The notes beneath the pieces were generated by a model that searched no databases, was not told the DNA's origin, and saw nothing but the letters and a program-made list of their open reading frames with translations. A stretch of DNA of 50,508 nucleotides. It comes from a bacterium. Its GTDB lineage: Bacteria > Chloroflexota > Dormibacteria > Aeolococcales > Aeolococcaceae. Below are positions 16,888 to 45,772 of the stretch, piece by piece (the first letter of the stretch is position 1; every line of letters starts with the position of its first letter). Location of the stretch: assembly GCA_021847925.1 (NCBI GenBank), contig JAJZNI010000016.1, forward strand, positions 1 to 50,508, given 5' to 3'. The position numbers and the translations under genes were made by a program.

Positions 16888-18036
16888 TCACACCACGTTG
16901 TGCTCGGGGATCAGCAACCCCCTGGCGAAGCGCTCGGGTGCGAACGGCGCCAGGTCGAGCCGGGGCTCCTCTCCGATGAACTGCTCGGCCAGCAGCAGCC
17001 CCACGGCAGGTGCCTGCTGAAAGCCGTGTCCGGAAAAGCCGCAGGCGCACCAGAATCCCTCCAGGGCCGACACGGGACCCAGGACCGGCTGGTGATCCGG
17101 CGTGGACTCATACAGACCGACCCACCCGGTGCGGACCCCGGCGTCGAGCAGCGCGGGGGCACGCCGTGACGCCACCTGCCCAATCTCCTCAAGGAAGCCC
17201 CACCTCACCTCGGTCGCGAAGCTGGGCACCTCCTCCCTGGCGCCCATGCCGAAGAGCAGGCCGCCGCCCTCGGGGTGGAAGTACAGGGACGTCGAGAAGT
17301 CGATCACCATCGGATGATCGTGCGGAATCCGCGTGAGCGGCTCCGTCACGAACACGTGGCGGGGGTAGGGCAGCACCGGTATCGATACACCCACCAGTTC
17401 GCCGATTCCTCCAGACCAGGCTCCCGCACAGGTGAACACCGCCGCCGTGGAGAGATCTCCTGCGCTGGTGCGCACGCCGGTCACCCGCCCCATTCGGGTG
17501 TCGATCCCCCGCACCTCCACTCCCTCAAGGATCCGTGCACCCATGCGTCGAGCCGCGGCCGCGTAACCGATCGTCACCTCGTGGGGGCTCGCGATGCCGT
17601 CGCTCGGGCAGAATGTGCCCCCCAGGACCCCATCCGTCTCGAGCAACGGGGTCAGCTCCCGGATCTCCGAGGTGCTCACCCAGCGCGCGTCGTCGACGCC
17701 GCAATCCCGCCACATCCCAAGCAACCCCTCGAATCTCTCCACATCGGCATCATCGGTGAGGACGAAGAGATAGCCGGTGCGCCGGAACGACGGGTCGACG
17801 CCGATCTCGTCGGGGAATCGCTCGAGCAGGCGGACCGCGAGCTGCTGGATCTCGACGTTGCGGCGATACGAGAACTGACGGCGGACTCCCCCGGCGCAGC
17901 GGCCCGTGGATTGAGACCCGAGAGTCTCGCGTTCACACAGGGTCACGCGCACCCCCCGCGCGCTCAGGTGATATGCGATCGAGCATCCGATGACGCCGCC
18001 GCCGATGATCACCACGTCTGCCCCGTCGCGCGTCAC
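16888..18036 (-). CDS. FAD-dependent oxidoreductase, DAO family (sarcosine oxidase beta / D-amino-acid oxidase-like)
   Basis: DVVIIGGGVIGCSIAYHL dinucleotide fold, C-terminal GFSGHGF. The GTG start at 18034-18036 overlaps the upstream stop as GTGA. The upstream part of ORF 16888..18324 is rejected. Confidence 0.9.
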   Translation of the reverse strand: MTRDGADVVIIGGGVIGCSIAYHLSARGVRVTLCERETLGSQSTGRCAGGVRRQFSYRRNVEIQQLAVRLLERFPDEIGVDPSFRRTGYLFVLTDDADVERFEGLLGMWRDCGVDDARWVSTSEIRELTPLLETDGVLGGTFCPSDGIASPHEVTIGYAAAARRMGARILEGVEVRGIDTRMGRVTGVRTSAGDLSTAAVFTCAGAWSGGIGELVGVSIPVLPYPRHVFVTEPLTRIPHDHPMVIDFSTSLYFHPEGGGLLFGMGAREEVPSFATEVRWGFLEEIGQVASRRAPALLDAGVRTGWVGLYESTPDHQPVLGPVSALEGFWCACGFSGHGFQQAPAVGLLLAEQFIGEEPRLDLAPFAPERFARGLLIPEHNVV

Positions 18037-19001
18037 CCGGGCTCGCCCTCGCGAAGCTCTCCACTCTCGTCCACCAGGCGGCGGTAGACAAGCCTCGCGA
18101 TCGCCCAATCCTGGGCGGCGACGCCCACGGACTTGAAGACGGTCCAACCTCCGCGAGGTGGCTGGCGCTGGCTGATGACCTGACCGAGCTCGACCAGGTC
18201 TGCCTCGCTGAGCCGTCCGGTTGCCATCGCCTGGATCAGGTCGCCCGCCTCCGCCAGCGCGGCGGGGAGGTGGTCGACGGCCACACACGCCGCGCGTGAG
18301 AGGACCTCGGCGGCCACCTCGCACATGTCGGGTCGGTATGCGCCGATCGCATTGATGTGGACGTGCTCGCCGAGGTCAGAGGCCTCGAACAGGGGACTCC
18401 TCGACGGGGTGGCACAGCAGATCACGTCAGCGCCGTGCACCGCCTCGCGAGTGCCTCCGACGACCGCCACCGCCAGGTGCTCATGCCGCCGGCGCAGCCG
18501 CCCCGCGAGGGCCTCCGCCGTGGCCCGATTCCGGCTCGCGATCCGCACCTCCTCGATGGGGCGAGCCGCCAGCACAGCCTCGGCCTGGTCCCAGGACTGC
18601 CCGCCCGACCCGAGTACCGCCAGGCAACGGGCGGCGGGCAGGGCCAGCGCGGCCGTGGCCGCCCCCGACGCGGCCCCGGTGCGCACGCGGGTCAGAGCCG
18701 CCCCGTCAATGTTGAGACGGGGAGTGCCCCTGGCATCGAACCAGACCGCCACTCCCTGGACCACCGGGACGCCGCTTCCCGCGTTGGTCTCGACCATCGA
18801 GACGAGCTTGGCGACCGCACCGTCCTCACCATCACAGCGGGCGATCATGCAGAGCAGTGAGCCGTCCCTCAACGCCATGCGCAGGGGCTGCTCCACCTCT
18901 CCGCGCGTCAGGGCGGTGAACACCCTCGCGACCTCGCGGATGGCATCTTCGACCGGTACAAGACGGCGCAGCGCGCGCTCGTCAACGAACAGGCCGGTCA
19001 T
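18033..19001 (-). CDS. Ornithine cyclodeaminase / mu-crystallin family protein (possible cyclic ketimine / pyrroline-2-carboxylate reductase)
   Basis: Family-typical N-terminus (LRRLVPVEDAIREVARVF) and Rossmann motif LAVLGSGGQS. Start ATG at 19001 (alternative GTG at 19022). Confidence 0.9.
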   Translation of the reverse strand: MTGLFVDERALRRLVPVEDAIREVARVFTALTRGEVEQPLRMALRDGSLLCMIARCDGEDGAVAKLVSMVETNAGSGVPVVQGVAVWFDARGTPRLNIDGAALTRVRTGAASGAATAALALPAARCLAVLGSGGQSWDQAEAVLAARPIEEVRIASRNRATAEALAGRLRRRHEHLAVAVVGGTREAVHGADVICCATPSRSPLFEASDLGEHVHINAIGAYRPDMCEVAAEVLSRAACVAVDHLPAALAEAGDLIQAMATGRLSEADLVELGQVISQRQPPRGGWTVFKSVGVAAQDWAIARLVYRRLVDESGELREGEPG

Positions 19002-19273
19002 CCGAGCGTGCCCTGCGCGCACGAACAGCCTGCAAAGGCCTGCCGGCTAGGCGGGAGGCCAGAGACTGACGCGAGTGCTCTCGTCCGGGGTCGCAGGGGG
19101 ATCTCCCACATCCGAGAAACCCGGATCACGAGCGCCCACGATGAACAGCTTGGAACTCCGGCCCCGGCGTCGCCACAGTGCCCGTGGCACCCGTGTCCAC
19201 AGCTTGAGGAGTGACCTGACGAAGCTCACCATCGCCCTCCCAACCTGAGGTCACCGCCGTCTCCATCACCGAT

Positions 19274-20674
19274 TCACGCCCGCCACCCGGTCGCGGGTCT
19301 GGCCATGGCGGCCGGCGGCACACGGGCCGAGCCCAGCGCATCCATGACCGCCCGGGCAGCGGCCCGTCCGGACCGCGCCGCCGCCTCCATGTTCCCGAGC
19401 TCGGCGAAGTAGTCGCCCGCGAAGTGAATGCTTCCGTCGGTCACCGAGGCGGCCGGTGGAGCTGCCACACCGGGGCGCCGGAAGGTGTTGCCGGGATCCC
19501 ACCGGTGGATCAGGGTCTCGCTCACGTGGCCGCGAAGGCTCGGGTACACACGGTAGAGATCGCGCAGGTAGACGTCCCGGACCTCCTCATCGTTGCTCTC
19601 CATCAGGCTACGGGCGGGCGGCCCCCCGACGTAGACCATCAGGCTGCCTCCGGGACGTCGCACACCGCGGCGCAGGCAGCTGGCATGGTTGAAGAGCATG
19701 TCGAAGGAGCGGCCCGGGGTCATCAGCGCATAGACGTCGTCCCAGGGCGCACGGTCCCGCTCGGACGTCAGCACCGCCATGGACAGGAAGGGACCGTAGC
19801 TCACCGACCTCAGGAAGCGCTCCACGGGAGGACTGATGGTCCTCACGACCCGGCGGGCCACGTGCGCCGGCGCGGCGACGATGACGTGGCGCGCGCTGAC
19901 CCGCACCGTCTCGCTTCCGGTGCAGTAGGTCACGACCGCTTCGCCGCCCTCAACCTCCACGGCCGTGACGGTGGAGCCCGTCCGCGCCGCCGCCCCGAGC
20001 TGCTGGGCCATGGCCACGGGAAGACGCGCGGTGCCGCCGCGGAGGTTGAGGGAGATCTCGCTGTCGGGCCCGCTCCAGACCTGGGCGAAGAGGCGGATGC
20101 CCACCGACGCCGCCATCTCGTTGGCCTCCGCCGTGGCGCGCCGCGCGGCGCACCGGAAGATGCCCTCGACCCGACGTGGCAGCGGGCCGAGGAACTCCGC
20201 GAAGGTGATGCGGTCCAGTTCCGCGCGCCGTCGTTCCGTCCCACGCCCCCCGCGCGCGGCGGAGTCGAGATCGCGGCGCACGGCCGTGCGGAGCTTGAGG
20301 CCCGCTCGGGCAAAGGCGATGCGTTCTGAGAGCGAGAGGGGCAGGCGCAGCGGGTAGGCCTCCACCCGCCGCGTGGGGAACACCCGGCCCTCGAACTCCA
20401 TGGCCGTGGTGCTGCCGGGGATGCTCAGTGTCTCGAGGCCGAGTTCCGCGACCAGCGCATCGAGGAGTGATCCGCGCCCGGGGAACAGGTGAGCGCCGAG
20501 GTTCAGCCAGTACTCGCCTCTCGGCTCGGATCTCATGCGTCCGCCGAAGCGATCCGAGGCCTCCAGGACCAGCACGCTCCGGTGCCGCAGCATCCAGGCG
20601 GCGGTGAGGCCGGCGATGCCCCCACCCACCACGATGACGTCCAGCGTTCCGTTCGCCTCATCCGCCGCGCTCAC
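19274..20674 (-). CDS. FAD-dependent amine-oxidase-like oxidoreductase
   Basis: DVIVVGGGIAGLTAAW followed by LEASDRFGGR (amine oxidase / PPO-type fold). GTG start preceded by AGGGAG. Confidence 0.85.
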   Translation of the reverse strand: MSAADEANGTLDVIVVGGGIAGLTAAWMLRHRSVLVLEASDRFGGRMRSEPRGEYWLNLGAHLFPGRGSLLDALVAELGLETLSIPGSTTAMEFEGRVFPTRRVEAYPLRLPLSLSERIAFARAGLKLRTAVRRDLDSAARGGRGTERRRAELDRITFAEFLGPLPRRVEGIFRCAARRATAEANEMAASVGIRLFAQVWSGPDSEISLNLRGGTARLPVAMAQQLGAAARTGSTVTAVEVEGGEAVVTYCTGSETVRVSARHVIVAAPAHVARRVVRTISPPVERFLRSVSYGPFLSMAVLTSERDRAPWDDVYALMTPGRSFDMLFNHASCLRRGVRRPGGSLMVYVGGPPARSLMESNDEEVRDVYLRDLYRVYPSLRGHVSETLIHRWDPGNTFRRPGVAAPPAASVTDGSIHFAGDYFAELGNMEAAARSGRAAARAVMDALGSARVPPAAMARPATGWRA

Positions 20675-20701
20675 GGCTCGATCTCCCTGTGTCCGGGCCG
20701 G

Positions 20702-21979
20702 TCACGGGTAGATGCCCCGTGCCAGGGTGGCGTCGGCGACCCGCTGCACCGCCACGGCGTAGGCTCCCAGCCGAAGCGGGACGCGCAGGCGCTGGGCGGC
20801 CGACCACGCCGCGTCGAAGGCGCTGCTCATGACGCCCTCCAGGCGGGCGTTGATCTCCTTCTCCTCCCAGAAGAAGGACTGCAGGTCCTGGACCCACTCG
20901 AAGTAGGAGACCGTCACTCCACCCGCGCTCGCAACGATGTCCGGGACCACGGTGATACCCCTCCGGTTCAGGATGTCGTCGGCGGCAGGGGTGATGGGGC
21001 CGTTCGCCGCCTCCAGGATGAGCGAGGCGCGAATGCGGCCGGCGTTGCCCGCCGTGATCTGGTTCTCCAGCGCCGCCGGCACCAGCACGTCGATCGGCGC
21101 CTCAAGCACCGCGTCACCGGCCACGGAGCGCGTGCCAGGAAAGCCGGCCACGGACCCGGTGCGCTGCTTGTGCGCGATGACCTCACGCACCGCCAGCGGG
21201 GTCTCGCTGACGATGGCGCCCCCCGTATCGGAGATGGCCAGGATCCGGAAGCCGTCCTCCTCCATCAGTCGGGCGGCGGTGCTGCCGACATTGCCGAAGC
21301 CCTGCACCGCCACGCTCAACTGCCGAGGGTCGCGCCCGAGCCGCGCGCAGATCCGGCGTGCGACCGTGGCAGCCCCGCGGCCCGGCGCCTCGACGCGGCC
21401 CCGGCTGCCTCCGACGGCGAGAGGCTTCCCCGTGACCGTGGCGGGGACGGAGTAGCCCTCCGCCATGGATATGGTGTCCATGATCCAAGCCATAACCGCG
21501 GGAGTGGTATTGACATCCGGAGCCGGGATGTCGCGCTCCGGTCCGATCAGGACGGAGATCTCCGCCGCATAGCGGCGCGTGAGCCGCTCCAGCTCCCCCG
21601 GGCTGAGCAGCTTGGGGTTCACCACCACGCCGCCCTTGGCGCCACCGAAGGGGAGGCCCGCGATGGCGCACTTCCACGTCATCCACATGGCGAGCGCCTT
21701 GATCTCGTTGAGCGTGACCTGCGGGTGGTAGCGGATACCTCCCTTGGTGGGCCCCGGAACCAGGTTGTGCTGCACCCGGTAACCCGTGAACATGCGAATC
21801 GAGGAGTCGTCCATCCGGACCGGGAAGTCAACGACGAGCTGACGCTGGGCCTCCCTCAGCAGGGCCCGCACGCCGTGGTCGAGGTCGAGGAGATCGGCAG
21901 CTGCGTCAAACTGCCTCTGCGCATTCGGCCATGGGTCCTCGATGGAGACGGCCCGTCTCGGCAGCGCCGTTTGTGCCAT
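20702..21979 (-). CDS. gdh: Glutamate dehydrogenase paralog, 425 codons, inverted relative to the copy at 1139..2416
   Basis: Colinear and gap-free with the first copy by eye: same GGIRYHPQVTLNEIKALAMWMTWKC and LPFGGAKGG motifs, same length, same C-terminus RGIYP. ATG at 21977-21979. Confidence 0.95.
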   Translation of the reverse strand: MAQTALPRRAVSIEDPWPNAQRQFDAAADLLDLDHGVRALLREAQRQLVVDFPVRMDDSSIRMFTGYRVQHNLVPGPTKGGIRYHPQVTLNEIKALAMWMTWKCAIAGLPFGGAKGGVVVNPKLLSPGELERLTRRYAAEISVLIGPERDIPAPDVNTTPAVMAWIMDTISMAEGYSVPATVTGKPLAVGGSRGRVEAPGRGAATVARRICARLGRDPRQLSVAVQGFGNVGSTAARLMEEDGFRILAISDTGGAIVSETPLAVREVIAHKQRTGSVAGFPGTRSVAGDAVLEAPIDVLVPAALENQITAGNAGRIRASLILEAANGPITPAADDILNRRGITVVPDIVASAGGVTVSYFEWVQDLQSFFWEEKEINARLEGVMSSAFDAAWSAAQRLRVPLRLGAYAVAVQRVADATLARGIYP

Positions 21980-22046
21980 GCGGCTCACCCCCCCGGACGG
22001 AGCGGTGCGCCGTCCGCGCACACGATGGCCTTCCTCGCGTTCACGA

Positions 22047-22403
22047 TCACACCCCTCCGCCCTGCCTGACCAGGATGGCGGCGATCGGCACGGCAACGCA
22101 CAGCCACGCCGCGACGCCCGCGAGGAGCGCATAGGGCACGCCCACCCCCGCGCGCAAGGCCACGTAGGTGACAGCAAGATAGACGGCGATGGCGGGGACG
22201 GCGATGAGCGCTGAGAGCGAGGCGCCCTTCACCGCGCTCGCCCCCGCGGTCTGTCCCACGAAGACGAAGCCGACCAGCGTAACCACGGGAACCATCACGA
22301 GGACGCCCGCGAGGGCCGGCCCGACGCGCGTCGCGACGAGCGGGACCGTGGCCACGATCGCCCCTCCGGCCACGAAACGGAGTGCAAACTCGATCACCGC
22401 CAT
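22047..22403 (-). CDS. Small 4-TM membrane protein (DUF3147-like)
   Basis: 118 aa, strongly hydrophobic, high GC3, sits between the SDR and gdh on the same strand. Confidence 0.7.
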   Translation of the reverse strand: MAVIEFALRFVAGGAIVATVPLVATRVGPALAGVLVMVPVVTLVGFVFVGQTAGASAVKGASLSALIAVPAIAVYLAVTYVALRAGVGVPYALLAGVAAWLCVAVPIAAILVRQGGGV

Positions 22404-22493: not shown

Positions 22494-23276
22494 TCACCAG
22501 CGATACCGGTCGATCGCCATGAGCCCCGCGGTCTTGGCCCCGTCGATCGGGATCGCCGCACCGGTCACGAATGACGCCTCGTCGGACACCAGGTACATCA
22601 CGAGGCGCGCCACCTCCCCCGGTTCCCCGATGCGCCGCGCCGGGCAGACCGCGTGGGCACGGCGCCGGCCCTCGTCCTGACCACCCGTCGCGTCCCATTC
22701 GTCCCAGGTCATCTGGGTGGCGATGGGCCCCGGACAGATCGCGTTAACGCGCAGTCCCTGATCAGCGTATCCGAGCGCCAGCGAGCGGGTCAGGCTGACC
22801 ACGGCCGCCTTGGACGCAGCGTAGCCGACGCTCCCCGCCACCCCCACGAGCCCCGCCATCGAGGCGTTGTTCACGATCACGCCGCGAGACCTCAGCAGGT
22901 GCGGGAGGGCGTGCTTGCAGCACAGCCACGTGCCCTTCACGTTGGTGTCGAAGAGGAGATCCCAGTCATCCTCCCGCGGTCCGTCGAGCCCCTCGGCCAC
23001 CTCGACGCCGCTGTTGTTGAAGAGGATGTCGATCCTCCCGAGCTCGCCGGCCACCCTCTGCATCAGAGCCGCGACCGCGCCCGGGTCGGTGACGTCCGTC
23101 GCGGCGAAGATCGCGCGGGCCCCGCCCTCGCCGAGGGCCCGAGCCATGGCCTCGCCCCGCTCCCGGGAGCGGCCCGCGATGACGACCGAGGCTCCCGCTC
23201 CGGCGAGGAGCTCGGCGGTCGCCGCTCCGATGCCGCTCGCCCCTCCTGTGACCACCGCGACCCGTCCGGCGAGCAT
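22494..23276 (-). CDS. Short-chain dehydrogenase/reductase (SDR)
   Basis: VTGGASGIGAATA, NNSG, YAASKAAV. Start shares one base with the upstream stop (TGATG). Confidence 0.9.
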   Translation of the reverse strand: MLAGRVAVVTGGASGIGAATAELLAGAGASVVIAGRSRERGEAMARALGEGGARAIFAATDVTDPGAVAALMQRVAGELGRIDILFNNSGVEVAEGLDGPREDDWDLLFDTNVKGTWLCCKHALPHLLRSRGVIVNNASMAGLVGVAGSVGYAASKAAVVSLTRSLALGYADQGLRVNAICPGPIATQMTWDEWDATGGQDEGRRRAHAVCPARRIGEPGEVARLVMYLVSDEASFVTGAAIPIDGAKTAGLMAIDRYRW

Positions 23277-24373
23277 CAGGCCACCGCCGGAGCGCTGAGC
23301 AGGGCGCGCTCCTGATCCGGCCCCCAGATGTCACCGACGGTGAAGCCCTCGGGAAACGGGTCATCGGCGTCGACGACGTACTGCGTCATCGCGGTCACGA
23401 AGGCCTGGCCGCTCACCGCCGGCACCACCGCCGGGTGCCCGCCGACCGTCGTCGTGCCCACCACGCGACCGGTGAACACGGTGCCCATGATCCCCTCATG
23501 GACGAAGTCCTCTCCGATGCCCAGCCGGCCCTTGGCATGGAGGCATGCCATCCGGGCGCAGGTGCCGGTACCGCAGGGAGAGCGGTCGAGGATCCCCGTC
23601 CAGGTCTCGGGCCGGTCCCAATCCAGCGAGCCCGTCGAGACGACCACCGTGTTCTTGAGGGTGGCGTCGGGCCTGGTCGGCGGGGCGGAGAACTGGGTGA
23701 CGGTGACGCCGGAGATGTCCGGGTTCTCCGGGTGGACAGCCGGGAGCTGCTCGCGCGTCGCGGCCTTGATCATCTCGCCGAGCCGGACGATGTCATGGCC
23801 CTCGTCAGGGGTCAGCCTCAGGCCCAGCGCACGGGCCTCGGTGATGACGAACATCATCCCCCCGTAAGCGACGTCCACCGTCACCGTCCCCAGCTGGGGC
23901 ACCTCCACGTTGGCATCGAGGTGGAGGGCGAAGGCCGGGACGTTCTGGAAGGTGACGCGCCGGACGCTCTGGTCCTGAACCTCGGCGCGGATCCGCACCA
24001 GTCCGGCGGGGGCCTCCAGCGCGAACTCCGTGACGGGCTCCTGCATCGGCACCATCCCCGTCTCCAGCAGCACCGTGGCCACGCACATGGTGTTGCTCCC
24101 CGACATGGGCGGGTACTCCTGCGGCTCCATGATCACGTAGCCCGCCACCGCCTCGGGATCGCTGCTGGGCAGGATCAGGTTGCAGCAGCTCCCCGGGTAG
24201 CCACGCGGCTCTTTCAGCATGAGCCTGCGAAGCCCATCGCCATGCATCTCGAGATACCGCTTCTTCTCGAACATGGTCGTACCCTGGACGTTCAGGACGC
24301 CCCCCGTGATGACCCGGCCGTGGTTGCCCCCCGCGTGGGCATCCACCGCCGTGATGCATCGCGCCAGCTTCAT
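23276..24373 (-). CDS. Proline racemase superfamily protein, atypical Ser/Cys catalytic pair (PRS-A)
   Basis: DAHAGGN..RV, PMSGSNTMC in place of PMCGH, DRSPCGTG retained, C-terminal GDIW. GAGGAG lies 6 nt upstream of the ATG. Confidence 0.9.
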   Translation of the reverse strand: MKLARCITAVDAHAGGNHGRVITGGVLNVQGTTMFEKKRYLEMHGDGLRRLMLKEPRGYPGSCCNLILPSSDPEAVAGYVIMEPQEYPPMSGSNTMCVATVLLETGMVPMQEPVTEFALEAPAGLVRIRAEVQDQSVRRVTFQNVPAFALHLDANVEVPQLGTVTVDVAYGGMMFVITEARALGLRLTPDEGHDIVRLGEMIKAATREQLPAVHPENPDISGVTVTQFSAPPTRPDATLKNTVVVSTGSLDWDRPETWTGILDRSPCGTGTCARMACLHAKGRLGIGEDFVHEGIMGTVFTGRVVGTTTVGGHPAVVPAVSGQAFVTAMTQYVVDADDPFPEGFTVGDIWGPDQERALLSAPAVA

Positions 24374-24423: not shown

Positions 24424-24452
24424 ATCGTAGTCTTTGTCAGACAGTAAGTCAA
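24424..24452 (-). promoter_or_regulatory. Sigma-A-type promoter of the PRS-A operon with an operator-like TGTC/GACA element in the spacer
   Basis: Read on the minus strand: TTGACT (24447-24452), a 17-nt spacer tactgtctgacaaagac, then TACGAT (24424-24429), about 45 nt upstream of the PRS-A ATG. This is the most AT-rich patch of the divergent PRS-A/gntR gap. Confidence 0.45.
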
Positions 24453-24513: not shown

Positions 24514-25227
24514 ATGGACACCCTGGCCAGTTTGTCGCCCGTATCGTCATCCACCCGCCGTGAGGAGGTGGTCCGAGCGCTGCGGCGCGCCATCCTGACC
24601 GGGGAGTTGCAGGCAGGCGATCACCTGCGCGAGGTCGCGCTCGCCGAGCGTCTGGGCGTCAGCCGGCCCACCGTGCGCGAGTCGATGCGCCAGCTGATCC
24701 AGGAGGGCCTGTTGACCCAGGAGCCCTACCGCGGGACGCGCGTGGTCGAGCCCCAGCCGGAGACGCTTCTGGAGATCGCGGATGTCAGGTCGGCGCTCGA
24801 GGCACTCGCAGCTCGCAAGGCCGCCACTCGCGGCGCGGCGCTCCTCGGCGAGCCCTTCGAAAAGGCTCTCGCGGACCTCGAGCAGGCGGCCACATCGGGC
24901 GATCAGTCGCTCATGCACGAGGCGCACGTGAACTTCCACGGTCTCGTCTACACGGCCTCCGGCAGCCAGCTGCTGGAGCAGGTGTGGAACCTGATACGCG
25001 CACGCATCGCCTTCGCGGTCGCGTGGGACCAGATGGCATACCCGGATTCCGCGTGGGGCGAACGCCAGCTTCAGCGCCATCGGGCTATCGTCACCGCGAT
25101 CATGGGAGGCGACGCGGCCAGCATCGACCACGTGGTGAACGAGCACATCGGCGCTGCGGCTCGGGACGTGGTGGACAGGGTCAACAAGGTGCAGGGCCGG
25201 CGAGATCGCCGGATCCGCTCGGCGTGA
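24514..25227 (+). CDS. GntR-family transcriptional regulator with FCD (FadR C-terminal) domain
   Basis: Winged HTH LREVALAERLGVSRPTVRESMRQL. All-helical C-domain with His residues (HVNFHGL, HRAIV). Confidence 0.9.
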   Translation: MDTLASLSPVSSSTRREEVVRALRRAILTGELQAGDHLREVALAERLGVSRPTVRESMRQLIQEGLLTQEPYRGTRVVEPQPETLLEIADVRSALEALAARKAATRGAALLGEPFEKALADLEQAATSGDQSLMHEAHVNFHGLVYTASGSQLLEQVWNLIRARIAFAVAWDQMAYPDSAWGERQLQRHRAIVTAIMGGDAASIDHVVNEHIGAAARDVVDRVNKVQGRRDRRIRSA

Positions 25228-25284: not shown

Positions 25285-26202
25285 ATGCGCAAGCGCGTGG
25301 AGTTGAGGGGGATTCTCCCCGCGATGGTGACGCCGTTCACAGGTGACGGTGCTCGACTCGACGAGGCGGCGCTGGCCGCGCTCAGCGATCGCCTCATCGC
25401 CGCGGGGGTGGGAGGCCTGATCCCGTGCGGAAGCACGGGTGAGTTCGTGTCGCTCAGCCATGCCGAGCGCCGCCGCGTGACCGAGGTCGTGGTGGAAGCG
25501 GCGCGCGGGCGCGTGCCCGTGGTTCCACAGACCGGGGCGCTGACCACCGCGGAGACCATTGAGCTCAGCCGTCACGCGGAGGCCGCCGGTGCCGCCGCCG
25601 TCATGATCGTCCCGCCCTACTACGAGGCCCCCCCGTGGGAGGACATCGTCCAGCACTACCGCGCCGTCTCGGCGGCGATCAGCATCCCGATCATGCTCTA
25701 TCACATCCCCTCAGCCCACGGGTACAAGCTCAGTGCGGCTCAGATCGGCGAGTTGGCTGAGGTTGATGGCGTCGACTTCATCAAGGACAGCAGCGCAGAC
25801 CTCGTGCAGCTGACTGAGCTTCTGCAGCGCTACGGTGACCGGATCCAGGTGTTCAACGGTTGGGATACGCTCACCTTTTACGGCTTCGCCGCCGGCACTC
25901 CCGCATCGGTCTGGGGTGCGGCGAACTTCATCCCCGATCTCTGCGTCGAGCTGTACGACACCGTCTACCGTCGCGGTGACCTGGAGGCCGGCCGCGAGGT
26001 CTGGCAGCGGGTGTGGCCGATCTGCCGCTACCTCGAGGAGCAGGCCTACGCGGCGCGGGTCAAGGGCGGCTGCGAGCTGATCGGGCACCCGGTGGGCCCG
26101 CCGCGCCTCCCCCTGCGCGCGGTGGCCTCCACGGACCAGGCGCGTCTCGCGGAGCTGCTCCGCCGGGCCGAGGTATCCATGCCCGCCGCCGTGGCCAGCT
26201 GA
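25285..26202 (+). CDS. DHDPS/N-acetylneuraminate-lyase family Schiff-base lyase (candidate pyrroline-4-hydroxy-2-carboxylate deaminase or 2-keto-3-deoxy-acid aldolase)
   Basis: ILPAMVTPF, GSTGEF, YHIP, catalytic Lys in FIKDSS. Confidence 0.9.
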   Translation: MRKRVELRGILPAMVTPFTGDGARLDEAALAALSDRLIAAGVGGLIPCGSTGEFVSLSHAERRRVTEVVVEAARGRVPVVPQTGALTTAETIELSRHAEAAGAAAVMIVPPYYEAPPWEDIVQHYRAVSAAISIPIMLYHIPSAHGYKLSAAQIGELAEVDGVDFIKDSSADLVQLTELLQRYGDRIQVFNGWDTLTFYGFAAGTPASVWGAANFIPDLCVELYDTVYRRGDLEAGREVWQRVWPICRYLEEQAYAARVKGGCELIGHPVGPPRLPLRAVASTDQARLAELLRRAEVSMPAAVAS

Positions 26203-26221
26203 CCCGCTCGCGGATACGAGA

Positions 26222-27946
26222 GTGAACGGACCGGTTTCGTCGGAGCTGGGCTCCGAATACTGGCGCGGCGCCGAAGCCGCTGTTCGGCGCACGATCTACC
26301 GGGGCACCGGCTTGGGCGACGACATCGCCGATCGGCCTCACATCGGTATCGTCAACGCGTACACGGATGCCTCGCCCGCGTACACGCACCTGCGCGGCCT
26401 CGCCGATGCTGTCAAGACCGGGGTATGGGCTGCCGGCGGAATTCCCTTCGAGTTCGGCACCTTCGCCACCTGCGGCAACATCGGCCTTGGCAGCGAGACG
26501 CTCAAGTACGAGCTCGTCATTCGCGATGCCCTGGCCGGGTCCATCGAGATCATGGCGAGCGTCCACCACTTCGCGGGGCTGGTCCTTCTGGCCTCGACGG
26601 ACAGCGTGATCCCAGGGCACATCCTCGGCGCGCTCCGCCTCAACCGCCCCACCCTCTTTGTCACCGGCGGTCCGATGCTCAGCGGGCACTGGCGCGGGCG
26701 GTCCGTCACCGCCATGCACGTCAACGAGGCCGTCTTCGGCGGTCTGCCCTCGGGAGCGATCACTCCAGATGAGCTGAAGGGGCTGGAGGACTCCGCCTGT
26801 CCCACGGCGGGAGCCTGCCCCGTCATGGGCACCGCCAACACCATGCAGATCCTCACCGAGCCCCTGGGGCTGGCTCTGCCGGCCACCGCCACCATACCCG
26901 CGGTGATGGTGGACAAGGTGCGTGCCGCGCACGTCTCCGGCCGGCGCATCGTGGACCTCGTCCGGCAGGGATGTCGCGTGGGGGACGTCCTCGACAGCCG
27001 GGCTCTGCGCAACGCGCTCATCGTCGACCTCGCCATCGGCGGATCGACCAACGCCGTGCTCCACCTGCTCAGCTTCGCCAGAGAGCTGGGGCTTCCCCTC
27101 ACCCTGGACGATTTTGACGAGCTGTCCCGGGTCATCCCCTGCCTGTCCGGTGTGCTACCCAACGGGCCGCACACCGTCGATCAGTTCCACCAGGCTGGAG
27201 GCGTCCCCCAACTGATGAAGCACCTCGGTGACCTCCTGGATGGAGACGCCGTCTCCGCTGATGGGCGCCCATGGCGGACCGTGCTCGAGCGTGTCGAGGA
27301 CCGTCCCTCGTCGGTGATCGCGACCCGCGAGAAGCCCCGCTTCGCGGACGGAGGTCTCTCCGTCCTGCGCGGGAACCTCGCGCCCTCGGGAGCCATCATC
27401 CGCCAGAGCGCCGTGCCCTCCGAGATGCAACGGCACACCGGTCCGGCCATCTGCTTCGACAGTGACAGGGACGCCTACGAGGCCGTCATCGGCGGCCGGG
27501 TGCGCCGGGGCTCGGTGGTGGTCGTGCGCTACCAGGGTCCGCGCGGTGCGCCGGGGATGGTCGAGGTCATGCTCACCTCCGACGCCCTCACCAGCACGGG
27601 GCGCAACCGCGACACCGCGCTCATCACCGACGGACGCTTCAGCGGATTCAATCACGGTCCCATCGTCGGTCACATCGACCCGGAGGCCGCGGTGGGCGGG
27701 CCGATCGCCCTCGTCGAGGATGGCGACACCGTCGAGATCGACATCCAGAACCGCCGCTTGGAGCTGCACGTCGAGGCTCGTGAGCTCGAGCGCCGCCGCG
27801 CCTCGTGGCGTCCACCCGAGCGATTCCAGCGCATCGGGCGAGGCATCCTCGGTCTCTATGCGATGACGGCGCTTCCCGCGAGCGAGGGGGCCGCGATGCA
27901 GCCGTGGACCGAGGCCAGCCACGAGAGGGAGCCGGCCGCCGTCTAG
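26222..27946 (+). CDS. IlvD/Edd family dehydratase
   Basis: 574 aa. Fe-S ligand region CPTAGACPVMGTANTMQ and C-terminal ITDGRFSG. GTG start. Confidence 0.9.
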   Translation: MNGPVSSELGSEYWRGAEAAVRRTIYRGTGLGDDIADRPHIGIVNAYTDASPAYTHLRGLADAVKTGVWAAGGIPFEFGTFATCGNIGLGSETLKYELVIRDALAGSIEIMASVHHFAGLVLLASTDSVIPGHILGALRLNRPTLFVTGGPMLSGHWRGRSVTAMHVNEAVFGGLPSGAITPDELKGLEDSACPTAGACPVMGTANTMQILTEPLGLALPATATIPAVMVDKVRAAHVSGRRIVDLVRQGCRVGDVLDSRALRNALIVDLAIGGSTNAVLHLLSFARELGLPLTLDDFDELSRVIPCLSGVLPNGPHTVDQFHQAGGVPQLMKHLGDLLDGDAVSADGRPWRTVLERVEDRPSSVIATREKPRFADGGLSVLRGNLAPSGAIIRQSAVPSEMQRHTGPAICFDSDRDAYEAVIGGRVRRGSVVVVRYQGPRGAPGMVEVMLTSDALTSTGRNRDTALITDGRFSGFNHGPIVGHIDPEAAVGGPIALVEDGDTVEIDIQNRRLELHVEARELERRRASWRPPERFQRIGRGILGLYAMTALPASEGAAMQPWTEASHEREPAAV

Positions 27947-27971
27947 CGATGGAGTCGCCAGCGCGCCACAC

Positions 27972-29033
27972 GTGCCTCGGGTGCAAGGCTCGGTGAGCGC
28001 CCCGCCCGTCAAGGTGCTGCTGGCGATCCGGGTCGACCCGCACCAGGTCGCCCGGATCGCCGCGGTCAGCCCCCGGCTGCTGGTCACCTACCGGCCCGAG
28101 CTGCTGCCCGCCGGGGGGCTCACGGGGGCGGCCCCGGCCCGTGACCCGGCGGACGGGGTGACGAGCATGGGGGGCGCCTCGGCGTGGAGGGATCTGCTGG
28201 CCGACGCCGAGATCATGCTCGGCTTCGATTGGGAGGAGCCGGGGAACCTCCTGCGGCGGGCGCCCCGACTGCGCTGGGTCCAGGCCGACAGCGCGGGAAT
28301 CGGCGAGTTCGTCGCCGCCCATGGTCTCGTGGACGACCGCCTGCAGTTGACCACCGCATCCGGCGTCCACGGCCAGCCCATCTCCGAGTACGTCCTCGCC
28401 GGGATGCTCCACTTCGCCAAGCGCTTTCCCGACCTGGCGGAGTGGAAGGCGGCCCGTGAGTGGCGGCCGTACACCCCCGTGGAGCTGGCCGGCTCCGAGG
28501 TCCTGATCATCGGTCTGGGGGCCATCGGACGCGCCGTCGCGCGGCTCTGCGCCGCAGTGGGGATGAGGGTGACCGGGCTGCGCCGAACCGGCGGACCGCC
28601 ACCCCCCGGGGTGTCCCACATCCTCGGCCATGCCGAGCTCGACGAGCGCCTGCCGGACTTCTCCTTCGTGGTGCTGGCCGCTCCTCTGACGCCGTGGACC
28701 CATCATCTCCTCGACAGGCCTCGCATCGAGCGCCTGCGCCGAGGCGCGGTGGTGATCAACGTCGGGCGAGGGGCGCTCATCGACGAGGAGGCGCTGGTGG
28801 CGGCCCTGGCTGGCGGTGGCCTCGGAGGCGCGGTGCTGGATGTCTTCGAGATCGAGCCCCTGCCGGCTGCCAGCCCCCTGTGGAGCCTGTCCAACGTCGT
28901 CATCACCGCGCACTCGTGCGGGGCGGTCACCGAGGAGCCCGACCGCATCGTCGATCTCTTCATCGACAACCTCGGCAGGTATCTCTCCGGGCAAGCGCTC
29001 AGGAACCTCTACCAGGCGGACCGAGGCTACTGA
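27972..29033 (+). CDS. D-isomer-specific 2-hydroxyacid dehydrogenase (NAD-binding)
   Basis: IIGLGAIGRAVARL, NVGRGALIDEEAL, ITAHSCG. Start uncertain among three GTGs at 27972, 27981 and 27993. Confidence 0.9.
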   Translation: MPRVQGSVSAPPVKVLLAIRVDPHQVARIAAVSPRLLVTYRPELLPAGGLTGAAPARDPADGVTSMGGASAWRDLLADAEIMLGFDWEEPGNLLRRAPRLRWVQADSAGIGEFVAAHGLVDDRLQLTTASGVHGQPISEYVLAGMLHFAKRFPDLAEWKAAREWRPYTPVELAGSEVLIIGLGAIGRAVARLCAAVGMRVTGLRRTGGPPPPGVSHILGHAELDERLPDFSFVVLAAPLTPWTHHLLDRPRIERLRRGAVVINVGRGALIDEEALVAALAGGGLGGAVLDVFEIEPLPAASPLWSLSNVVITAHSCGAVTEEPDRIVDLFIDNLGRYLSGQALRNLYQADRGY

Positions 29034-30485: not shown

Positions 30486-30508
30486 GTTCTCCGGCGCCTC
30501 CCTCGGTC

Positions 30509-32008: not shown

Positions 32009-32041
32009 CCTGCTGCTTGGTCGCTTTCCCCGGCCTTGCGG

Positions 32042-33734: not shown

Positions 33735-33745
33735 GTTCCGGCGGC

Positions 33746-35195: not shown

Positions 35196-36338
35196 TCAAC
35201 GAGATCCCCTGGGGCCCACGACCTCGAACAGGGGATCTCCCAGCGCCTCGGGGTCCACGTCGACGCCGAGCCCGGGCGCTGCGGAGGCCGAGGCCCTCCC
35301 GTCCTTCAGGGTCGCGCCTCCCGAGCGGGCGATGGGACGGTGGGAGGCGGCGGTGAGGTGGGTGGCCGTCACATGGGATGCCGCCAAGAAGTTGTCGGGG
35401 CGGCAGCTCGCCGCGAGCTGGCTGATCCCGGCGGTGGCGAGGTCCCCGCCCATCGGCTCGTCGATCATCACCATCAGCCCCGCGCTCTGGGCCAGGTCGC
35501 GAATCCGTGCGGCCTTCGTCAGGCCACCCACCCGCGCGGGCTTGATGTTGATGGCGTCCGCGGCGCCGCGCTTGAGGCAGGCGAGCAGGTCGTTGACGTC
35601 GCAGACAAGCTCGTCGATGGTCACGGGGAGCTCGGTTCGCTGGCGGACCTGCGCCAGCTCCTCCATGGTGCGGCACGGCTGCTCCACGTACGTGTCACGT
35701 CCACGGATGGCGGCGATGAATCGCAGAGCCTGGCCCATCGTCCAGCCGCGGTTCGCATCGCTCGTCACGAAGTCGGCCCGCCCCGCCACGGCGTCGAGCA
35801 CCGCATGCACACGGGTGGCGTCCTCGATCGGGTCCTCGCCCAGCTTCAGTTGCCAGCAACGGTAGCCGGAGCCGGCCATGGTCGCCGCCTCTCTGGCCAT
35901 CGCCTCCGGGCTGGCGAGGGTCAGGGGGTGGAAGACAGGGTAGTCGTCCTGATGGCGGCCACCCAGCAGCTTGTGCACCGGAAGCCCCAGCACCCTCCCT
36001 CGCGCGTCCCACAGAGCCGCATCGATCGCCGCCTTGCCGGGGAGGTGGCCGCGAAGCGCCGCATCCATGCGGTCGAGAACCACGTCGTTCGCCATCAGGT
36101 CGGCGCCGACCACGATCGGGGCCAGCTCCCTCACGGTGGCCTGCACACTCCCGGCGAAGCCCTCGATGTAGTTGCCTCCCAGAGTGCACGCCTCGCCGTA
36201 GCCCGTGACGCCGCCCTCTGTGGCCACCTCCACCACCGTCGTCTCCATGCGCGTCAGCGTCCGTCCGTGCGACATCGTGTAGCTACCCGTCGCGAGGGGC
36301 AGGTCGAGAGAGTAGCAGCGCAGCGACGTCACCTTCAT
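35196..36338 (-). CDS. Enolase-superfamily enzyme (mandelate racemase / muconate-lactonizing subgroup-like)
   Basis: Metal ligands in SDANRGW, YVEQPC and TIDELV. Barrel Lys in NIKPARVGG. WQLKLG sits where KxK is expected. The ATG at 36336-36338 overlaps the PRS-B stop as ATGA. The upstream part of ORF 35196..36707 is rejected. Confidence 0.9.
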   Translation of the reverse strand: MKVTSLRCYSLDLPLATGSYTMSHGRTLTRMETTVVEVATEGGVTGYGEACTLGGNYIEGFAGSVQATVRELAPIVVGADLMANDVVLDRMDAALRGHLPGKAAIDAALWDARGRVLGLPVHKLLGGRHQDDYPVFHPLTLASPEAMAREAATMAGSGYRCWQLKLGEDPIEDATRVHAVLDAVAGRADFVTSDANRGWTMGQALRFIAAIRGRDTYVEQPCRTMEELAQVRQRTELPVTIDELVCDVNDLLACLKRGAADAINIKPARVGGLTKAARIRDLAQSAGLMVMIDEPMGGDLATAGISQLAASCRPDNFLAASHVTATHLTAASHRPIARSGGATLKDGRASASAAPGLGVDVDPEALGDPLFEVVGPRGSR

Positions 36339-37438
36339 GCGAGAACCTCCACCGACGGCCGCCGAGCCACGCTCTCGGATGCATCCGCCCAGATATCCCC
36401 GAGCGCGTAGCCCTGGGGAAACGGGTCCCCCTCGTCCAGCACGTAGGTCGACATCCCGGTAACCCACGCGCGCCCCGATATCGTCGGCACCACGGCGCGC
36501 AGCTTCCCCACGTGCGTCTCCGCGATCAACGTACCGGTGAAGTGGGTCCCGAGAATCCCCTCGTGAACGAACTTCTCGCCAATGCGGAGACGGCCCTCGG
36601 ATTCGAGCACGGCCATCCGCGCCGAGGTCCCCGTCCCGCAGGGAGAGCGATCGAGCGCTCCGGTCCAGGACTCGGGCCGACCCGGGTCGACCGCACCCGT
36701 GGTGCAAATCACCGCGTTCCGGCCACCCACGCCAGGAGCGTCGGCCGGTGCATGCAGCATCGTCAGCGTGATGCTGTTGATCGCCGGGTTATCCGGGTGC
36801 CGCACGGCCAGCTCCTCCTGCGCGATCCTCTTGATGATGGCCCCGGCCCTGACGATCGCCCGGGCATTGGAAGACGTCAACTCAACCCCGGCCTCCGCGG
36901 CGGATGCCAGCACAAAGAACTGGCCACCGAACGCCACGTCCACGGTGACACGCCCGAGCTCAGGCACCTTGAGCACCCTCTTCTCGTGCACCACGAACGC
37001 CGGCACATTGCGAAGCGTCACCCTCTCGACCTTGGTCGAGCGCACCTCAGCCTCGACCTCGATGAGACCAACTGCAGTCTCCAGCACCAGTCTGGTCACG
37101 GGCTCGGTCGCCGGAAGCGCACCCGTCTCCAGCAGCGCCGTGACCACGCACATCGTGTTGCTGCCCGACATCGGGTTGAAACCACTCTGCTCCATCACGA
37201 TCAACCCGGCGTCAGCGGCGGCCGTCGTGGGCGGGAGCACAAGGCTGCAGCACATCGCGGGATATCCGCGCGGCTCCTGCAGCATCAGTCGCCTCAGCCA
37301 GTCCAGGTTCGCTCGGCAGTACTCCAAGCGCTCGGCCATTGACCGTCCCTGGACGCGGAGGGCACTGCTGAGGAGCACCCGACCAGGCTCCCCCTCAGCG
37401 TGAACGTCGATCGCGCTGACCATGAACCGCGGCCGCAT
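36335..37438 (-). CDS. Proline racemase superfamily protein, atypical Ser/Cys catalytic pair (PRS-B)
   Basis: DVHAEGEPGRV, PMSGSNTMC, DRSPCGTG, C-terminal GDIW. Alternative ATG at 37423. Confidence 0.9.
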   Translation of the reverse strand: MRPRFMVSAIDVHAEGEPGRVLLSSALRVQGRSMAERLEYCRANLDWLRRLMLQEPRGYPAMCCSLVLPPTTAAADAGLIVMEQSGFNPMSGSNTMCVVTALLETGALPATEPVTRLVLETAVGLIEVEAEVRSTKVERVTLRNVPAFVVHEKRVLKVPELGRVTVDVAFGGQFFVLASAAEAGVELTSSNARAIVRAGAIIKRIAQEELAVRHPDNPAINSITLTMLHAPADAPGVGGRNAVICTTGAVDPGRPESWTGALDRSPCGTGTSARMAVLESEGRLRIGEKFVHEGILGTHFTGTLIAETHVGKLRAVVPTISGRAWVTGMSTYVLDEGDPFPQGYALGDIWADASESVARRPSVEVLA

Positions 37439-40098: not shown

Positions 40099-41106
40099 TC
40101 AGGCCACCAGGAATCCATGCCGCATGGGATCGTCAGGATCGAGGGCGAAGGTGCTCTCTCCCGTGATGAAGGCTGATCCCGTCACCTCCACCCTCACCGC
40201 GGGCAGGTCCCCCACCCGCGCCTTCTCGACGGCACGGGCACGGAAGAGCGCCCCGGTGATGCTCTCGTGCACGAACTCCTCCCCCATCTCCAGCTCCCCC
40301 CTGGCTACGAGGGTCGCCACCTTGGCGCAGGTGCCGGTCCCGCACGGCGACCGATCCGCCCCACCCGGTCGGATTATGACGAGGATCCGAGCGTCGGCGC
40401 CGTCAGCCACCGGGGGGCCGAAGTACTGGATGTGAGTGAGGCCTCGGATGTCGGGGAGGGTCGGGTGCGCCACATCCACGGCAGCATCGAAGGCGGGGCG
40501 CAGCAGCTTGGCGGTTCCGATTGCCTCGGCGGCGTGCTCGATGTCGAGTGTGAGCCCGACCTGGGCCGCCTCGGTGATCGCATAGAAGTTGCCGCCGTAG
40601 GCGATGTCGGCGCGCACGCGCCCGTGGTGCGGGAGGTCGATCACGACGTCTCGGTGGAGGAGAAAGGAGGGAGCGTTCACGAAGCTGACCTCCTGGGCCC
40701 GGCCGTCACACACCTTGACCCGCGCCTCGACGAGACCGGCCGGCGTGTCCAACCGGATCTCCGTGTGGGGCTCCCTCACCGTCACCGCGCCGGTCTCGAC
40801 CAGGACCGTGCACAGGCCTATGGTGTCGTGCCCGCACATCGGGAGGTACCCGCTCGTCTCTATAAAGAGGACACCGACGTCGGCGCGGGGATCGCAGGGC
40901 GCGGTGAGGATGCAGCCGGACATGACGCTGTGGCCACGCGGCTCGAACATGAGTGCGGTGCGCACCCAGTCCAGCCGGCGCTGGAGATCGAGCATCTTCT
41001 CCAGCATCGTGCCCCCCTCCAGGGGTGGCACCCCCGAGAGCACGGTCCGGGTTGGGTTGCCGCCCGTGTGGCTCTCAATGGTGCGAAAGACGTGGTCAGC
41101 TCGCAT
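40099..41106 (-). CDS. Proline racemase superfamily protein, canonical Cys/Cys pair (4-hydroxyproline 2-epimerase or proline racemase; PRS-C)
   Basis: ESHTGGNPTR, PMCGHDTIG, DRSPCGTGTCAK. 335 aa. Confidence 0.9.
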   Translation of the reverse strand: MRADHVFRTIESHTGGNPTRTVLSGVPPLEGGTMLEKMLDLQRRLDWVRTALMFEPRGHSVMSGCILTAPCDPRADVGVLFIETSGYLPMCGHDTIGLCTVLVETGAVTVREPHTEIRLDTPAGLVEARVKVCDGRAQEVSFVNAPSFLLHRDVVIDLPHHGRVRADIAYGGNFYAITEAAQVGLTLDIEHAAEAIGTAKLLRPAFDAAVDVAHPTLPDIRGLTHIQYFGPPVADGADARILVIIRPGGADRSPCGTGTCAKVATLVARGELEMGEEFVHESITGALFRARAVEKARVGDLPAVRVEVTGSAFITGESTFALDPDDPMRHGFLVA

Positions 41107-41301: not shown

Positions 41302-41326
41302 CTTGTCCGTCTGACAGACTGACAAG
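41302..41326. promoter_or_regulatory. 25-bp near-perfect palindrome, candidate GntR-family operator
   Basis: CTTGTCCGTCTGACAGACTGACAAG: 11 of 12 arm positions pair around centre 41314. It lies in the divergent gap between PRS-C and the ALDH gene, immediately upstream of a TAGGAT -10-like hexamer (41331-41336). Confidence 0.5.
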
Positions 41327-43742: not shown

Positions 43743-43771
43743 CAGACACTCTCCTCACAGGTGGTGATCGC

Positions 43772-44515: not shown

Positions 44516-44551
44516 CGTGGCAGCGGCCATCCCTCGCGCCTCACCCTGCAT

Positions 44552-44573
44552 GATAATCTGACAGTATGACAAT
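44552..44573 (+). promoter_or_regulatory. -10-like GATAAT plus operator-like TCTGACAGTATGACAAT overlapping the start codon of the HcnC-like gene (possible leaderless promoter)
   Basis: GATAAT at 44552-44557, then 8 nt to the ATG at 44566, with no SD. 14 of 17 positions of 44557-44573 match 41310-41326. Confidence 0.4.
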
Positions 44574-45768: not shown

Positions 45769-45772
45769 CGCC

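Follow-up and report, generated by a model that had tools for sequence, protein, structure and literature searches.

A Ser/Cys protein of the proline racemase superfamily with a clade-specific insertion, encoded in a hydroxyproline catabolic island of an Aeolococcaceae bacterium

Collagen, plant cell walls and peptides supply hydroxyproline isomers, which form a sizeable source of carbon and nitrogen, and the proline racemase superfamily (PRS) is a textbook case of function assignment from sequence and genome context. Here we describe PRS-A, a PRS protein with a Ser91/Cys267 dyad that is encoded by contig JAJZNI010000016.1 of assembly GCA_021847925.1, from a bacterium of the family Aeolococcaceae (Chloroflexota). 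Positions 1 to 50,508 of this contig were analyzed and are called the window below. The Ser/Cys pair is settled, known chemistry, and its catalytic type has been characterized. What is new is the placement of PRS-A and its paralog PRS-B within a large, insertion-bearing clade for which we found no reported assay in the literature searched. On balance, we favor the view that PRS-A is an active, cofactor-independent Ser/Cys ('LhpL-like') hydroxyproline enzyme, most likely with a 3-hydroxyproline (3-Hyp) isomer as its substrate.

The closest described systems are two Ser-type proteins solved with ligands and one Ser-Cys enzyme studied biochemically. The former are treated by Zhao et al. (2014, PMC4113996), according to whom B9JQV3 (Avi_0518 of Agrobacterium vitis; structure 4LB0; cluster 9), which pairs Ser93 with a Cys, is a 4-hydroxyproline (4-Hyp) 2-epimerase that is promiscuous for 3-Hyp epimerization. 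Structure 4LB0 was solved with trans-4-hydroxy-L-proline, and 4K7G (B9K4G4) with pyrrole-2-carboxylate. In the same paper, the catalytic residue of one face is given as Ser93 in 4LB0 and Ser90 in 4K7G, with Ser standing where Cys/Cys enzymes have their His and the motif Asn serving to position the catalytic Ser. This arrangement is described in the legend of Figure 5 and is proposed for all Ser-type members. The third enzyme, PaLhpL (PA1255) of P. aeruginosa, belongs to the Ser-Cys type that earlier papers of Watanabe's group gave as 'function unknown'. It is a trans-3-hydroxy-L-proline 2-epimerase, with cis-3-hydroxy-D-proline as the product (Watanabe et al. 2016, PMC5144071). When combined with a pyrroline-2-carboxylate (Pyr2C) reductase it also yields L-proline, which reflects a weak dehydratase activity (kcat/Km 1.23 mM-1 min-1) that is approximately 6000-fold less efficient than the reaction of AcnX, the known cis-3-Hyp dehydratase (PMC5144071).

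Other members of the superfamily and its partner enzymes provide further points of reference. Dedicated trans-3-hydroxy-L-proline dehydratases carry Thr at the second catalytic position, and the human dehydratase acquires epimerase activity when its Thr is mutated to Cys, as cited in PMC3958920. Two families of Pyr2C reductase are known, OCD and MLD2, the OCD type being described in PMC4113996. In TlProR, proline is discriminated from hydroxyproline by 'site 5', which is Trp241, six residues before the motif Asp. An earlier note on the window, made from its sequence alone, had regarded a Ser/Cys enzyme as lacking a characterized activity and as an unlikely two-base racemase. The B9JQV3 epimerase and PaLhpL contradict this reading, which matches the state of knowledge before 2014-2016.

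PRS-A is a clear member of the superfamily. The Pfam family Pro_racemase (PF05544, IPR008794) matches its residues 10 to 345 with an E value of 3.1e-120 and a score of 401.6 bits (cut-off 27), and the match extends over positions 2 to 325 of the 325-position model. The two stretches of PRS-A that hold the catalytic motifs, EYPPMSGSNTMCVA and LDRSPCGTGTCA, include PMS91GS93N94TMC97 and D263RSPC267GTG. In gap-free regions of the HMMER alignments, Ser91 pairs with the catalytic Cys of AsProR (7PB3, NMCGHGS) and with the Ser of PPMSGSNSIC (4K8L, 1TM0 and 4K7G) and ASSGSNSIC (4LB0). Where canonical Cys/Cys enzymes, namely ProR and the 4-Hyp 2-epimerases of clusters 1, 2 and 7, read MCGH, PRS-A reads MSGS, and gap-free alignments to 7PB3 and to the window paralog PRS-C place Ser91 at the first catalytic Cys and Ser93 at the next His, as the earlier note had read by eye. 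Its S91-G92-S93-N94 is likewise matched, in an ungapped stretch, with the SGSN of 4K7G, 4K8L and 4LB0, the Ser-Gly-Ser-Asn hallmark of clusters 3 and 9 of Zhao et al. PRS-A shares its fold and DRSPCGTG with the Cys/Cys racemases and 4-Hyp epimerases (TcPRAC, 1W61; AsProR, 7PB3; PA1268, 2AZP; SCO6293), and differs from them in that both their first Cys and the following His are Ser.

An AlphaFold2 (AF2) model computed from a 54-sequence alignment (pLDDT 91.8, pTM 0.90) predicts that PRS-A adopts the PRS fold of two domains, in which two helices face each other and each has a catalytic residue at its N-terminus. Ser91 is modeled directly before helix 92-104 and Cys267 directly before helix 268-280, an outcome that answers the earlier suggestion that a structure model be used to see whether Ser sits at the Cys position. 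Foldseek searches with this model gave TM scores of 0.87 to 0.96 across PRS structures, with 4K7G as the top match (0.88-0.96) and 4LB0 at 0.88-0.94. We also considered Cys97 of SNTMC as the true catalytic residue and rejected it, given that Cys97 lies within helix 92-104 of the model and that the same Cys occurs in 4K7G and 4LB0, where the Ser sits on the ligand face.

The catalytic apparatus is conserved throughout the relatives of PRS-A. Its best 120 database homologs, which are 68 to 99% identical and come from several phyla, without exception carry MSG[ST]N, DRS[PA]CGTG and a 12-residue insertion of the form LDWxRPxxWTG before the Cys loop. Ser91 is therefore no sequencing accident. Across the homolog alignment D263, R264, S265, C267 and G268-T271 are invariant, and some homologs have Ala at the position of Pro266. 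Because every catalytic motif residue is strictly conserved, the possibility that PRS-A is a pseudoenzyme was rejected. Moreover, the strict retention of Cys267 where dedicated dehydratases have Thr argues that proton delivery at the second face is under selection.

The insertion, SLDWDRPETWTG, occupies approximately residues 249 to 260 and is missing from PRS-C, 4K8L, 4K7G, 4LB0 and 7PB3. In the AF2 model it corresponds to a predicted loop at 247-259 (pLDDT ~83-90), holds two conserved Trp residues (W252 and W258) and falls in the hairpin that carries the equivalent of 'site 5'. In a neighbor-joining tree all sampled Ser-type proteins group together. Among them, the insertion-bearing proteins form a group of their own, composed of the PRS-A branch, the PRS-B branch, a Rhizobium protein (PRS3) and a protein of Streptomyces LHD-70. 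Its sister group consists of the Ser-type proteins that lack the insertion, namely cluster 3 (4K7G, 4K8L), cluster 9 (4LB0) and PRS1 and PRS2 of R. etli. As judged from the names of the 120 homologs and from 80 related loci (these and further loci are numbered L003, L013 and so on below), the clade spans Chloroflexota, Gemmatimonadota, Acidobacteriota, Acidimicrobiia, Nitrospinota, Sphingomonadaceae and a haloarchaeal metagenome-assembled genome, and it occurs in Streptomyces and Rhizobium as well. Members named in the two PRS searches are called 'proline racemase', 'proline racemase family protein' or 'hypothetical protein', and the annotated Rhizobium records read 'proline racemase family protein' or 'probable proline racemase protein'. 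Assigning a function to so widespread a clade, with its conserved Trp-rich insertion predicted to lie beside the substrate pocket, would annotate thousands of genes and could account for the retention of three PRS paralogs within a single island by some genomes.

The position of PRS-A relative to the characterized enzymes was judged by its identity to PDB sequences, an isofunctional cluster corresponding to ~60% identity or more (an e-110 edge). PRS-A is 44% identical to 4K8L, 41% to 4K7G, 39% to 7PB3 and 37% to 4LB0. By this measure it lies outside cluster 3, the LhpL group with PaLhpL, 4K7G and 4K8L, and outside cluster 9, from which it is also separated as a clade in the tree. In addition, none of the NCBIfam equivalogs reaches its cut-off with PRS-A. 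The best is T3LHypDht at 374 (373.8) bits versus 550, and a second score is 254.5 versus 540. These results uphold the earlier note in so far as PRS-A stands apart from the characterized isofunctional clusters.

Similarities to the individual systems nevertheless differ in kind. PaLhpL, which is placed with cluster 3 by its primer-derived termini only, resembles PRS-A in its Ser/Cys dyad and in being a second PRS gene beside a Cys/Cys epimerase in a hydroxyproline cluster, and its cluster contains a Pyr2C reductase and a cis-3-Hyp dehydratase, for which the window and L003 offer analogous contexts. PRS-A differs in its modest identity to cluster-3 structures, in its insertion, in an OCD-type rather than an MLD2-type reductase and in the short-chain dehydrogenase/reductase (SDR) gene of its operon. 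B9JQV3 shares the SGSN...DRSPCGTG apparatus and the fold, but is insertion-free, more distant in sequence and assigned to 4-Hyp epimerization. The protein of 4K7G is the best structural match and has the Ser-Gly-Ser-Asn motif, but carries a non-catalytic Thr where PRS-A has Cys267.

The genes around PRS-A are consistent with a role in this metabolism, and we consider the window to be a hydroxyproline catabolic island. A tblastn search with PRS-A revealed three PRS genes in the window: PRS-A itself, PRS-B (51% identical) and PRS-C (39% identical). Only PRS-C is the Cys/Cys paralog, whose PMCGHDTIG...DRSPCGTG the earlier note had read correctly; it had omitted that PRS-B, like PRS-A, is Ser/Cys. 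Approximately 3.5 kb from PRS-C lies a three-subunit set (DAO/Fer2_4/Pyr_redox_2-BFD) that resembles the D-hydroxyproline dehydrogenase (D-HypDH) encoded by SCO6289-6291 of S. coelicolor (SCO6289-6293, PMC6608401), as well as the Pseudomonas type. Because of this nearby set, PRS-C looks like a standard trans-4-Hyp epimerase, with PRS-A and PRS-B as extra paralogs. On the strand of PRS-A, the genes that follow it are, in order, the SDR, a small membrane protein, a glutamate-type dehydrogenase (GDH), a flavin amine oxidase, an OCD-family protein, a DAO-family protein and glycerate kinase.

We propose that Ser91 and Cys267, which lie at the N-termini of two opposing helices, would act as the acid/base residues on the two faces of the C-alpha, with Asn94 keeping Ser91 in place. 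The expected reaction would be the 2-epimerization of trans-3-hydroxy-L-proline to cis-3-hydroxy-D-proline, and the balance that we infer between activities, like that of PaLhpL, would include partial dehydration of the substrate to Pyr2C. The downstream OCD-family protein would reduce Pyr2C to L-proline, the DAO-family protein would oxidize the D-hydroxyproline product, and PRS-C would handle trans-4-hydroxy-L-proline. Indeed, the 4-Hyp role appears to be filled already, because the Cys/Cys PRS-C sits with an ABC transporter and has D-HypDH-like genes nearby.

Gene contexts elsewhere in the clade were examined in the 80 related loci by using GC3-filtered gene calls and one Pfam batch scan; naive clustering of six-frame open reading frames (ORFs) had been dominated by antisense ORFs, spurious ones of high GC content and blocks of lineage-specific synteny. 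When all neighbors of PRS-A in the window were compared with the 80 loci by tblastn, almost none was found to be shared, and the window operon is thus not the general context of the clade. The informative clade loci, which hold OCD or Ldh reductases and AcnX or MR/MLE dehydratases, point to 3-Hyp catabolism. They include an OCD-PRS-AcnX arrangement with gaps of 5 and 12 bp (L003), PRS-AcnX pairs (L013 and L079), PRS-OCD in Streptomyces (L053), PRS-OCD-MR/MLE (L030) and, in Rhizobium, a PRS gene divergent from an Ldh/MLD2-family gene (L089/L090). An LhpL-like context, meaning a Pyr2C reductase of the OCD or MLD2 family with or without AcnX or MR/MLE, was recognized in the window, in its close relatives L081-L083, and in L003, L013, L030, L053, L079 and L089/L090.

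On plasmid pC of Rhizobium etli CIAT 652 (L089, 1-10053), three Ser/Cys PRS genes from three sub-clades occur in one cluster. The first is insertion-free and nearest to cluster 3, the second is cluster-9-like and accompanied by two SDRs, and the third belongs to the insertion clade and lies beside the Ldh/MLD2-family gene. Genes for DHDPS, D-amino-acid dehydrogenase and aldehyde dehydrogenase are also present in this cluster.

Several observations weigh against a 3-Hyp assignment for PRS-A. Most of the 80 loci lack hydroxyproline genes nearby, their commonest neighbors being PTE, FG-GAP/ASPIC and esterase genes, and a few loci suit the 4-Hyp route instead, namely L087, which is part of a D-HypDH/DHDPS cluster, L085, which adjoins two DHDPS genes, and L086. 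Our searches found no reported activity for any member of the insertion clade, and identity to the characterized enzymes is only 37 to 44%. The insertion adjoins the substrate-discriminating 'site 5' and, as judged from sequence, could change specificity. Finally, PRS-A shares the window with a second paralog of this clade, and at least one of the two may therefore differ in substrate.

Some of these same observations would suit a second assignment, in which PRS-A is another 4-Hyp 2-epimerase like B9JQV3/4LB0 that acts on the trans-4-L/cis-4-D or the cis-4-L/trans-4-D pair and feeds DAO and DHDPS-like enzymes. The sole Ser/Cys enzyme solved with its substrate is a 4-Hyp 2-epimerase, the PRS-A operon includes a DAO gene with a DHDPS-family gene divergent from it, and the clade members of L085 and L087 reside among DHDPS and D-HypDH genes. 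We nonetheless regard this assignment as unlikely. PRS-A is just 37% identical to 4LB0, a canonical Cys/Cys paralog of the 4-Hyp epimerase type is already present as PRS-C, and the tightest clade operons pair the PRS gene with OCD and AcnX, both of them enzymes of 3-Hyp metabolism.

The SDR gene adjacent to PRS-A calls for separate consideration. Direct reading of the sequence upheld the earlier statement that the stop codon of PRS-A shares a base with the SDR start codon (TGATG, 23278..23274), and co-transcription of the two genes, also claimed earlier, is very likely. The Arg-Ser-Arg that follows strand beta-2 of the SDR suggests, on sequence grounds, the use of NADP(H). The search for a specific function gave no assignment, since both its nearest solved structures (7DJS and butanediol dehydrogenases among them) and its NCBIfam models are of generic kinds such as butanediol dehydrogenases, glucose dehydrogenases and FabG-like proteins. 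The TGATG overlap is kept in L081-L083, metagenomic relatives of 87% identity, whose operon reads PRS-A-SDR-small membrane protein-OCD-DAO-PNPOx-ALDH, and it takes the form ATGA in the 78% relative L084.

Beyond these close relatives, PRS-A and the SDR part company. By tblastn, none of 80 species-representative loci with PRS-A homologs of 46 to 70% identity has an adjacent SDR. Orthologs of the SDR, at 58% identity or more, make up a group of their own, and in L092, whose PRS-B, PRS-C and MR/MLE proteins are 59 to 66% identical to those of the window, the SDR ortholog (66%) directly follows the MR/MLE gene in a locus that has no PRS-A gene. The two SDRs that follow the cluster-9-like Ser/Cys PRS gene on R. 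etli plasmid pC are 35 to 39% identical to that of the window. The SDR thus recurs in clusters for the catabolism of proline derivatives and is not specifically tied to PRS-A, because L092 retains it without PRS-A and none of the 80 loci pairs the two genes. In L093 and L094 (7001-7810 and flanks), the SDR ortholog (62%) was observed in an operon-like row whose other genes encode an ABC transporter, oxoprolinase-like hydantoinase A/B, a dipeptidase of the M19 type and a DAO/Fer2_4/Pyr_redox trio, with OCD divergent; this looks like a different cluster, for the catabolism of a proline derivative or lactam.

These data bear on a third possibility, that the reaction or the substrate of PRS-A is one not yet described and that its product passes directly to the coupled NAD(P)-dependent SDR, for example for a hydroxyproline/oxoproline oxidoreductase step. 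The earlier note had raised such a transfer, and the part of its argument that holds is the one- or four-base overlap retained in the 87% and 78% relatives. The recurrence of SDR orthologs among proline-derivative genes (OCD, DAO/Fer2/Pyr_redox, hydantoinase A/B and M19 peptidase), the PRS-SDR-SDR order on R. etli pC and the lack of an assigned function for the insertion clade would also be in keeping with it. The absence of an adjacent SDR from all 80 loci and the L092 arrangement speak against it, as does a catalytic apparatus in PRS-A that is identical to that of characterized Ser-type PRS enzymes. Furthermore, PRS-B and the MR/MLE gene show the same kind of overlap, and overlapping stop and start codons are commonplace in compact operons of high GC content. 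We consider this possibility rather improbable, and a dedicated hand-off from PRS-A to the SDR is speculation.

A bolder reading extends to the clade as a whole. The insertion-bearing Ser/Cys proteins might have a PRS specificity not yet described, such as that of a dedicated 3-Hyp 2-epimerase for a cis or D isomer, and PRS-A, together with the NADP-type SDR, DAO and perhaps the conserved 2-hydroxyacid dehydrogenase and IlvD/Edd proteins, might constitute an undescribed salvage of D-/cis-hydroxyprolines through an oxo- or dihydroxy-intermediate to Pyr2C and proline; we hold this to be doubtful. Least probable of all is that PRS-A is mainly a dehydratase, the type of role that Watanabe et al. 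proposed for both LhpL types: the OCD-family gene of its operon, the OCD or MLD2 genes adjacent in other lineages, T3LHypDht as best NCBIfam match and the dehydratase 4K7G as top Foldseek match would fit, but Cys267 is strictly conserved where dedicated dehydratases have Thr, the NCBIfam score is far under its cut-off, and dehydration by PaLhpL is so inefficient relative to that by AcnX.

Table 1. Coordinates of PRS-A, its sequence features and neighboring genes in the window
Feature	Position	Strand	Evidence
PRS-A, 365-aa PRS protein, Ser91/Cys267 dyad	23276..24373	-	ORF with ATG start, Pfam, AF2, Foldseek
S91-G-S93-N94 motif; Ser91 for first catalytic Cys, Ser93 for His, Asn94 reported to position the catalytic Ser	24092..24103	-	Gap-free alignment to 4K7G, 4LB0, 7PB3
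Cys97 (of SNTMC), non-catalytic	24083..24085	-	Inside predicted helix 92-104; also in 4K7G, 4K8L, 4LB0
Clade-specific 12-residue insertion, ~residues 249-260, hairpin directly before catalytic Cys loop	23594..23629	-	Alignment
D263-R-S-P-C267-G-T-G motif with second catalytic residue Cys267	23564..23587	-	Alignment
TGATG, PRS-A TGA stop and SDR ATG sharing base 23276	23274..23278	-	Minus-strand read GCC TGA TGC
Classical SDR, 260 aa, TGxxxGxG and YxxxK motifs	22494..23276	-	Pfam adh_short/adh_short_C2, E ~1e-57 to 1e-60
118-aa hydrophobic membrane protein, weakly GlpM/DUF3147-like	22047..22403	-	GlpM E 4e-4, DUF3147 E 6e-3, both below gathering scores
GDH, start uncertain	20702..21979	-	Pfam ELFV_dehydrog; NCBIfam GdhA/GdhB below cut-off
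Flavin amine oxidase	19274..20674	-	Pfam Amino_oxidase 5.8e-49; near SDR in L084 and L092
OCD/mu-crystallin protein, candidate Pyr2C reductase	18033..19022	-	Pfam OCD_Mu_crystall 3.7e-50; kept in L081-L083 PRS-A operon
FAD-dependent DAO-family oxidoreductase, start uncertain	16888..18087	-	Pfam DAO 3.1e-80; follows OCD in L081-L083
GntR/FCD regulator, divergent from PRS-A	24514..25227	+	Pfam GntR and FCD
PRS-B, second Ser/Cys paralog with insertion (PMSGSNTMC...DRSPCGTGTS), PRS-A clade	36335..37438	-	Alignment
MR/MLE enolase-superfamily gene	35196-36338	-	Start overlaps PRS-B stop, ATGA at 36335-36338
PRS-C, canonical Cys/Cys paralog, adjoins amino-acid ABC transporter (SBP_bac_3 type)	40099..41106	-	Alignment

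Downstream of the SDR, the membrane protein and the gdh-type gene lie on the same strand, as the earlier note had stated; its label 'DUF3147-like' for the former corresponds to a weak match among sub-threshold hits alone. A small gene resembling that of the membrane protein also follows the SDR in L081-L083. The listed ORF for GDH overlaps the membrane-protein ORF, and its true start is therefore probably located further downstream. GDH and the flavin amine oxidase (19274-22177) look like a lineage-specific insertion, because they are missing from the equivalent operon of L081-L083, wherein L081 proceeds straight from the membrane protein to OCD.

The MR/MLE protein encoded after PRS-B has 4MGG as its best solved relative, followed by 2PMQ, 4H2H and 4E8G, the last three of which we take to be structures of hydroxyproline-betaine epimerases. 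The pairing of PRS-B with MR/MLE is kept in L084 and L092. Beside the D-HypDH-like trio (42915-47426), a DapB-like reductase and a second SDR were observed.

The 140-bp intergenic region between PRS-A and the GntR regulator contains a promoter-like site (24424-24452, minus strand) and an inverted motif of the T-GT-N3-AC-A type (24434-24445). Motifs resembling TTGTCAGACAGT, a GntR-type T-GT-N3-AC-A half-palindrome, occur at 24434-24445, 41314-41325 and 44561-44572, which correspond to the region upstream of PRS-A and GntR, the intergenic region between PRS-C and an aldehyde dehydrogenase gene, and a site just upstream of the DAO gene of the D-HypDH-like trio. These sites may form a shared operator, for which the statistical support is weak, with three matches against 1.1 expected and 11 of 100 shuffled sequences reaching three.

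Divergent from PRS-A (25285-29033, plus strand), genes for a DHDPS-family protein, an IlvD/Edd dehydratase and a 2-hydroxyacid dehydrogenase accompany the GntR regulator, an arrangement also present in L081-L083; DHDPS, IlvD/Edd and GntR recur in L092. To our knowledge, an IlvD/Edd dehydratase has no part in any described hydroxyproline pathway. Interleaved with the hydroxyproline genes, at 29115-35083 and 15639-16793, are two class-III aminotransferases, an aldehyde dehydrogenase, an HIBADH-like protein, a xylose-isomerase-like TIM-barrel protein and the glycerate kinase, a set that resembles a route from glyoxylate/hydroxypyruvate to glycerate. A second aldehyde dehydrogenase lies beyond PRS-C in the window.

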